Assembly: GCF_002854065.1 (NCBI RefSeq)
Contig: NZ_CP024147.1
Direction: 5' to 3' (one strand)
Source: Escherichia coli
Lineage (GTDB): Bacteria; Pseudomonadota; Gammaproteobacteria; Enterobacterales; Enterobacteriaceae
Length of the DNA: 64,000 nt
The notes below the pieces were generated by a model that saw only the letters and a program-made list of their open reading frames with translations, had not been told where the DNA came from and did no database searches. This document shows, piece by piece, positions 3,272-3,693 of the stretch (its first letter is position 1; each line of letters starts with the position of its first letter). The position numbers and the translations under genes are program-made.

Positions 3272-3693
3272 CCTCGCGCATACAGCCGGGCAGTGACGTC
3301 ATCGTCTGCGCGGAAATGGACGAACAGTGGGGATACGTCGGGGCTAAATCGCGCCAGCGCTGGCTGTTTTACGCGTATGACAGGCTCCGGAAGACGGTTG
3401 TTGCGCACGTATTCGGTGAACGCACTATGGCGACGCTGGGGCGTCTTATGAGCCTGCTGTCACCCTTTGACGTGGTGATATGGATGACGGATGGCTGGCC
3501 GCTGTATGAATCCCGCCTGAAGGGAAAGCTGCACGTAATCAGCAAGCGATATACGCAGCGAATTGAGCGGCATAACCTGAATCTGAGGCAGCACCTGGCA
3601 CGGCTGGGACGGAAGTCGCTGTCGTTCTCAAAATCGGTGGAGCTGCATGACAAAGTCATCGGGCATTATCTGAACATAAAACACTATCAATAA
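3190..3693 (+). CDS. insB: IS1 InsB frame (expressed as InsAB' transposase by -1 frameshift from insA)
   Basis: 167-aa frame overlapping the insA 3' end in the -1 frame; catalytic domain of IS1 transposase. Coordinates are those of the ORF track; true expression is via a fusion. Confidence 0.85.
3245..3253 (+). other. IS1 programmed -1 ribosomal frameshift motif TTAAAAAAC
   Basis: A6C slippery run in the insA/insB overlap. Confidence 0.7.

Follow-up and report, generated by a model that had tools for sequence, protein, structure and literature searches.

A one-base difference between two IS1 copies in an Escherichia coli chromosome segment most probably reflects a standing IS1 isoform allele

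The two IS1 copies located in a 64,000-nt stretch of an Escherichia coli chromosome (contig NZ_CP024147.1; the whole stretch is called the window below) differ at a single base, nt 444 of the element. This difference is very probably a standing allele of the IS1 isoforms, carried by a hybrid element which arose by recombination or gene conversion and was either transposed into yceI or converted at that site. Both the recombination mechanism and the order of events are what we infer from the sequence comparisons described here. The finding is within what is known about IS1, and the polymorphism itself was already known.

An ungapped comparison of window positions 2941-3708 (copy 1) and 18888-19655 (copy 2) showed 767 out of 768 shared bases (99.87% identity, above chance), the sole mismatch being G at 3384 versus T at 19331. 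Both are complete elements of 768 bp on the + strand. A repeat search of the 64,000-nt window revealed them as one direct repeat pair, with no third IS1 copy in the window, and the homology between them ends exactly at the IS termini. The mismatch corresponds to the third base of insB codon 65, which is AGG in copy 1 and AGT in copy 2, and translation of the insB frame gives ...AYDRLRK... (3190-3693, +) and ...AYDSLRK... (19137-19640, +), respectively. In the 232-aa InsAB', a conceptual frameshift fusion that represents the biologically relevant protein, the change is R130S. An earlier note on this DNA had reported the single-base difference and the Arg to Ser change in InsB, and both were borne out by the ungapped comparison and the insB-frame translation.

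Copy 1, an IS1R or 'IS1B-family' isoform with Pfam and NCBIfam IS1 matches, lies inside csgD and is flanked by a perfect 9-bp target-site duplication, CGTCCAGAG (left 2932-2940, right 3709-3717). Its 23-bp left inverted repeat (IRL) is situated at 2941-2963 (+) and the right one (IRR) at 3686-3708. The IRL matches the reverse-complemented IRR at 18 of 23 positions, in line with the 23-bp imperfect terminal repeats of IS1. The insA gene is located at 2996-3271 (+) and encodes a 91-aa protein with a zinc ribbon and HTH (PF03811, PF12759); the A6C slippery site AAAAAAC at 3247-3253 (+; IS nt 307-313) is the predicted place of the -1 frameshift that leads to InsAB', and the insB frame comprises 167 codons matching PF03400 (DDE_Tnp_IS1). 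The G at 3384 (+) specifies Arg65 of InsB, or Arg130 of InsAB'. Copy 2, inside yceI, has an IS1R/IS1B backbone but, at nt 444, the IS1A allele, and carries its own perfect 9-bp duplication, CGGCGTGGT (left 18879-18887, right 19656-19664). Its insA (18943-19218, +) is the same as that of copy 1, the slippery site AAAAAAC is found at 19194-19200 (+), and the T at 19331 (+) gives Ser65 in InsB and Ser130 in InsAB'. The duplications fall within the 8-9 bp typical of IS1, and the overlapping insA/insB' frames together with the A6C site correspond to the IS1 coding arrangement in both copies. It is well established that the A6C motif serves as the -1 frameshift site for production of InsAB' (PMC12428005). 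Against NF033558 (cut-off 100), InsAB' scored 243.8 bits for copy 1 and 241.9 bits for copy 2, and PF03400, PF12759 and PF03811 were above threshold for InsAB' of both copies.

The gene csgD (2426-3883, - strand) is split by copy 1 into a C-terminal part (2426-2940) and an N-terminal part (3709-3883), while yceI (18559-19911, - strand) is split by copy 2. In silico removal of each IS together with one duplicate restored an intact CsgD ORF of 216 aa and an intact YceI ORF of 191 aa. Based on the separate 9-bp duplications and the restored ORFs, the two elements represent independent simple insertions and not a joint move. The closest genome, E. coli CUWW06, is separated from the window by 12 substitutions over 63.2 kb, without indels; it carries the same csgD::IS1 with the same duplication, while its yceI is intact. 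This indicates that copy 1 is the older insertion and that copy 2 is a recent, private one. Insertion of IS1 at the copy 2 site of yceI was absent elsewhere among 5,426 complete E. coli genomes, ten apparent full-length matches to the yceI junction including other insertion sites (records H56 and H57). The earlier note had taken the near-identity of the copies as a sign of a recent common source, which is half right: recency holds for copy 2, while copy 1 is common to the nearest relative and older.

Some features of the surrounding genes were also observed. Interrupted by copy 1 after approximately codon 50, csgD is the master regulator of curli and biofilm, and the strain is predicted to be curli-negative. 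In CUWW06, two more IS1R-type copies are present (locus L001, 9180-13240), upstream of the left end of the window, and lack matching target duplications; they are situated beside a lipoprotein-sorting gene that is truncated and in the pgaA/pgaC region, from which pgaB is missing. An IS1-associated rearrangement in that genome seems in this way to have damaged another biofilm-matrix pathway as well. Ten genomes carry IS1 elsewhere in or beside yceI/yceJ (e.g. WS0115A and CUVET19-1426), and this neighbourhood is seemingly a repeated IS1 target. Four of the 12 substitutions between the window and CUWW06 are accumulated within 950 bp in flgM/flgA (window 31295-32244), which could point to a small recombination patch or to selection on flagellar regulation. 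The region between the IS1 copies (2941-19655) includes the core genes csgBAC, ymdAB, clsC, mdoCGH, yceK, msyB, mdtG, lpxL and trhO, and a direct IS1 pair of this kind readily lends itself to deletion between the IS1 copies, to tandem amplification or to mobilisation in the manner of Tn9. For the phenotype of the strain, the knock-outs of csgD and yceI probably weigh more than the SNP.

For the assignment of the isoforms, both copies were aligned with the full set of six IS1 elements that E. coli K-12 MG1655 carries, and the states at nt 127, 262, 298, 301, 304, 393, 396 and 444 were written in this order as a (IS1A state) or b (IS1B state). Copy 1 showed eight differences to K-12 IS1A/IS1E, located at these same sites, and has the IS1B/R state at all eight, which places it in the IS1R / IS1B type. 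Copy 2 reads bbbbbbba, with the IS1B/R state at seven of the eight sites and without the G444 of the IS1R/IS1B type. At nt 444, T (Ser) is found in K-12 IS1A and IS1E, and G (Arg) in IS1B, IS1C, IS1D and IS1F, in IS1R of R100 and in the BL21-type IS1. In a recent study, nine mismatches to the IS1A/E 'consensus' are given for type II and nine for IS1D, seven of them shared (PMC12428005), and the counts obtained for the window agree. Assignment of copy 2 to IS1A/IS1E was considered and rejected, as the IS1A state is present at nt 444 only and the element is a hybrid, despite the label that PGAP gives to identical sequences. Exact copy-1 sequences are named 'IS1-like element IS1B family' by PGAP and exact copy-2 sequences 'IS1A family'; the single residue change R130S flips the name, though seven of the eight diagnostic nucleotides are of IS1B type.

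The combination of IS1B-like states at seven sites with an IS1A-like state at the last one is the pattern expected of a hybrid with IS1B sequence on the left and IS1A sequence on the right. As nt 444 is the 3'-most diagnostic site and the isoforms have no differences over nt 445-768, such a hybrid looks the same as a point mutation when copy 2 is considered alone. The earlier note had listed distinct IS1 sub-lineages, a post-insertion mutation and a sequencing error as three unranked options, and had missed both the isoform-diagnostic status of the site and recombination or gene conversion between isoforms. The comparison with IS1 isoforms that it had proposed, performed with K-12, R100 and BL21-type elements, showed that nt 444 separates isoforms. 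Its sub-lineage option gains support from this, nt 444 G/T being a standing isoform polymorphism and the copy-2 sequence recurring elsewhere.

The frequency of the alleles in public genomes was used to weigh a hybrid against a new mutation. The exact copy-1 sequence was found at 100.0% identity in at least 60 complete-genome records of E. coli. Of 20,395 E. coli records, 18 contain the exact copy-2 sequence (100.0%), at assorted loci; these represent about a dozen unrelated strain backgrounds, one strain having both a chromosome and a plasmid copy. No 100% match to copy 2 was present among the best 5000 PLSDB plasmids; evidence for travel of the variant on plasmids is limited to two newer ones of the E. 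coli set (H82 and H84), which carry it exactly. As a control, this backbone was searched with the synonymous G444A transition in place, which gave one record, the copy-2 type being 18-fold commoner. At the protein level, copy-2 InsB (167 aa, exact) was present on 159 contigs of a public protein collection; among the control substitutions, R65K, R65T, R65M, R65W and R67G were found on none and R65G on two.

A spontaneous G-to-T transversion, arising either in the element at yceI once inserted or in the copy that directly gave rise to it, with a match to IS1A by chance, would be the simplest event, involving a single base, and no site right of nt 444 is able to prove a recombination tract. Random variants of the backbone do exist, although they are rare (the one G444A record and the two R65G contigs), and all three IS1 copies in the 43 kb of CUWW06 inspected around the locus have G444. 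However, an IS1A state results from only 8 of the 2304 possible substitutions (0.35%). With 12 SNPs in 63.2 kb separating the window from CUWW06, no more than about 0.15 substitutions would be predicted for the IS (approximately 0.08-0.15 expected in 768 bp since the split), and the joint probability of a random post-insertion change to the IS1A state is about 5 in 10,000. Moreover, T is commoner than the same-codon controls, 18 times by records or approximately 80 times by contigs, and T444 is also carried by several other mosaic backbones. An independent point mutation is for these reasons an unlikely origin of T444. Estimated from the 18:1 ratio towards the G444A control (about 12:1 without obvious clones), mutation with no regard to site likewise has a small chance, roughly 5-10%, of accounting for the pattern. 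Some of the surplus of copy-2 records relative to G444A could stem from a single old mutation that spread clonally, and not from recombination occurring repeatedly. Both the post-insertion mutation and the sequencing error proposed in the earlier note are disfavoured by the 8 fitting substitutions in 2304 and by the 18-fold rarer G444A control.

The distribution of haplotypes argues for exchange between isoforms. Using an 81-bp haplotype covering sites 393, 396 and 444, the copy 2 type 'bba' was found exact in 211 records, 'aab' in 4067 records, and T444 of any kind in 3687 records. Records with an exact match to the IS1A backbone with G444, a major isoform, number at least 60, and BL21 as well as E. 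coli B and C are among them. All four combinations of backbone and nt 444 allele exist (four-gamete pattern), which requires recombination or recurrent mutation at nt 444, and the BL21-type combination of a-backbone and G indicates that G/T444 segregates independently of the backbone. The InsB of copy 2 is also encoded by the other mosaics abbbbaaa and abbbbbba, some of them with an IS1F-like left end. Two of these mosaic haplotypes occur in one genome, AP021895, both with a private IRL marker, A at nt 8, and this shared marker would be difficult to account for had the copies not exchanged sequence. The IS1 elements of AP021895.1 (L012-L014) and of AP027829.1 (L010) have this C to A change at nt 8 in the IRL, yet they are multi-copy and some are flanked by duplications. 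Copies bearing T444 and exact IS1B-type copies share replicons, e.g. in L73, ECCWS199, E308 and the 4/1-1 plasmid, so that there is opportunity for exchange. In species-representative genomes, scanned with a pattern degenerate at sites 393, 396 and 444, all 46 of 46 IS1 loci had G444 and no T444 copy was found, which indicates that T is the derived, IS1A-associated state. Three loci (L008, L011 and L015) differ at nt 393, 396 and 663, and the right flanks of L008 and L015 are nearly identical; this is suggestive of in-situ conversion at an orthologous insertion, but falls short of proof.

Two further observations were made during the survey. CP005999.1 (locus L007, 2752-5666) carries a Tn9-like IS1-catA1-IS1 arrangement with two isoforms, abbbbaaa and IS1R (abbbbbbb). 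Near-identical IS1 fragments also turned up in assemblies of Haemophilus, Streptomyces, Corallococcus and Puniceibacterium (L017, L018, L052 and L060), each time on a very short contig; they most likely represent contamination by E. coli or a cloning host and not true residence of IS1 in these genera.

Under the favoured explanation, homologous recombination or gene conversion between co-resident IS1A-type and IS1R/IS1B-type copies would have generated the hybrid, the switch from IS1B sequence on the left to IS1A sequence on the right falling within nt 397-443. Transposition of this hybrid into yceI as a simple insertion, creating the 9-bp duplication, would have followed; in the other scenario, conversion would have taken place in situ on an element already inserted in yceI. 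The event would be placed after the split from the nearest sequenced relative. Gene conversion among dispersed repeats has been documented in E. coli K-12 (PMC4444293), and a literature search for IS1-specific gene conversion returned this general conversion of E. coli repeats only.

A further possibility is that the two copies are truly identical and that T19331 was introduced by a base-calling error or by mis-mapped reads of IS1A type. IS1 is multi-copy, repeats are the commonest place of consensus polishing errors, and cross-mapping from IS1A-type copies would bring in IS1A alleles specifically. Nevertheless, nt 393 and 396 are only 48-51 bp away, so that their IS1A alleles would usually be on the same mis-mapped short read, and copy 2 keeps the IS1B state at both. 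The surrounding sequence, GACAGGCTCC, does not form a homopolymer and does not match a Dam/Dcm motif. The occurrence of the same 768 bp in 18 complete-genome records, and of the protein on 159 contigs, points to a genuine natural allele, and the 12 clean substitutions without indels towards CUWW06 indicate a high-quality assembly. An artefact of assembly or polishing is accordingly very unlikely, even less probable than a point mutation.

The substitution could also have been selected for its function, R130S altering the activity or regulation of the transposase and copy 2 being an adaptive, more or less active variant. K-12 IS1A/E, with Leu81 and Ser130, are the active copies in K-12, transposition having been seen for this type only in recent assays (PMC12428005). 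In addition, a positive charge is lost 21 residues past the presumed first catalytic Asp, and Arg is favoured by the family profiles by 1.4-1.9 bits. Based on the motif pattern, the catalytic residues would be D109, D166 and E191, which would place residue 130 in the hairpin after the first Asp. On the other hand, the poor mobility of K-12 IS1B/C and IS1D is ascribed to L217Q and H193Y, both absent from the window copies. H193Y (IS1D) and L217Q (IS1B/C) reportedly lower transposition about 30-fold, as Chen et al. are said to have found in 1998. Elements with R130 (IS1R of R100; BL21-type, with 40+ copies per genome) and elements with S130 are both multi-copy with target duplications, and in distant IS1 homologues the column is highly variable (R, K, P, S, Q, T, H, M and I). 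With a variable column, a small profile cost and both alleles in multi-copy elements, R130S is expected to be nearly neutral, and a functionally selected change is quite improbable. There is a similarly slim chance that the F81/S130 transposase is a functionally distinct hybrid, e.g. with activity or cis-preference altered in comparison with the F81/R130 transposase of IS1R. If this were true, the yceI insertion would mark a newly active sub-lineage born of gene conversion between isoforms, and recombination among IS1 isoforms would yield transposases with new properties.

The difference between the copies is real but ordinary, and its significance beyond bookkeeping is slight. Before one-base differences between IS copies are called mutations or errors, they should be checked against the polymorphisms known among isoforms. 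G/T444 (Arg/Ser130) is a handy marker for the IS1 lineage behind an insertion and for exchange between isoforms.

In comparison with known systems, the two direct IS1 copies of the window bracket a DNA segment of 15,179 bp, as do those of Tn9-like transposons (IS1-cat-IS1). Unlike in Tn9, each IS1 has its own duplication, the outer flanks (CGTCCAGAG and CGGCGTGGT) do not match, and the segment is ordinary core chromosome, from which it follows that it did not arrive as a unit. A composite transposon was rejected on these grounds, the presumed passenger being syntenic and present in CUWW06, which has copy 1 only.

The IS1R element of R100/NR1 is closely similar to copy 1. The R100 IS1 compared (21225-21992), which adjoins catA1 and is of the type named 'IS1-like element IS1B family' by PGAP, is one synonymous base (nt 127) away from copy 1, and its InsAB' (WP_095033700.1) is the same as that of copy 1; the CUWW06 copies have the same accession. 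Copy 1 thus encodes the IS1R transposase (F81, R130, H193, L217). Length, inverted repeats, insA/insB layout and the A6C site of the R100 element are shared with both window copies, while T444 (S130) distinguishes copy 2 from it.

Among the K-12 elements, IS1A and IS1E ('type I' or 'consensus' in PMC12428005) have T444/Ser130 in common with copy 2. The transposase of IS1A differs from copy 2 InsAB' by L81F only, whereas copy 2 has the IS1B state at the other seven sites. K-12 IS1B and IS1C have the backbone of the window copies at the diagnostic sites and are one base (nt 704) away from copy 1, differing in A704 (L217Q), where both window copies retain L217. K-12 IS1D also shares this backbone and is three bases away from copy 1, with T631 (H193Y) and changes at nt 50 and 262, where both window copies have H193. 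The IS1 of BL21 and E. coli B, with an a-backbone and G444, presents the opposite combination to the b-backbone and T of copy 2.
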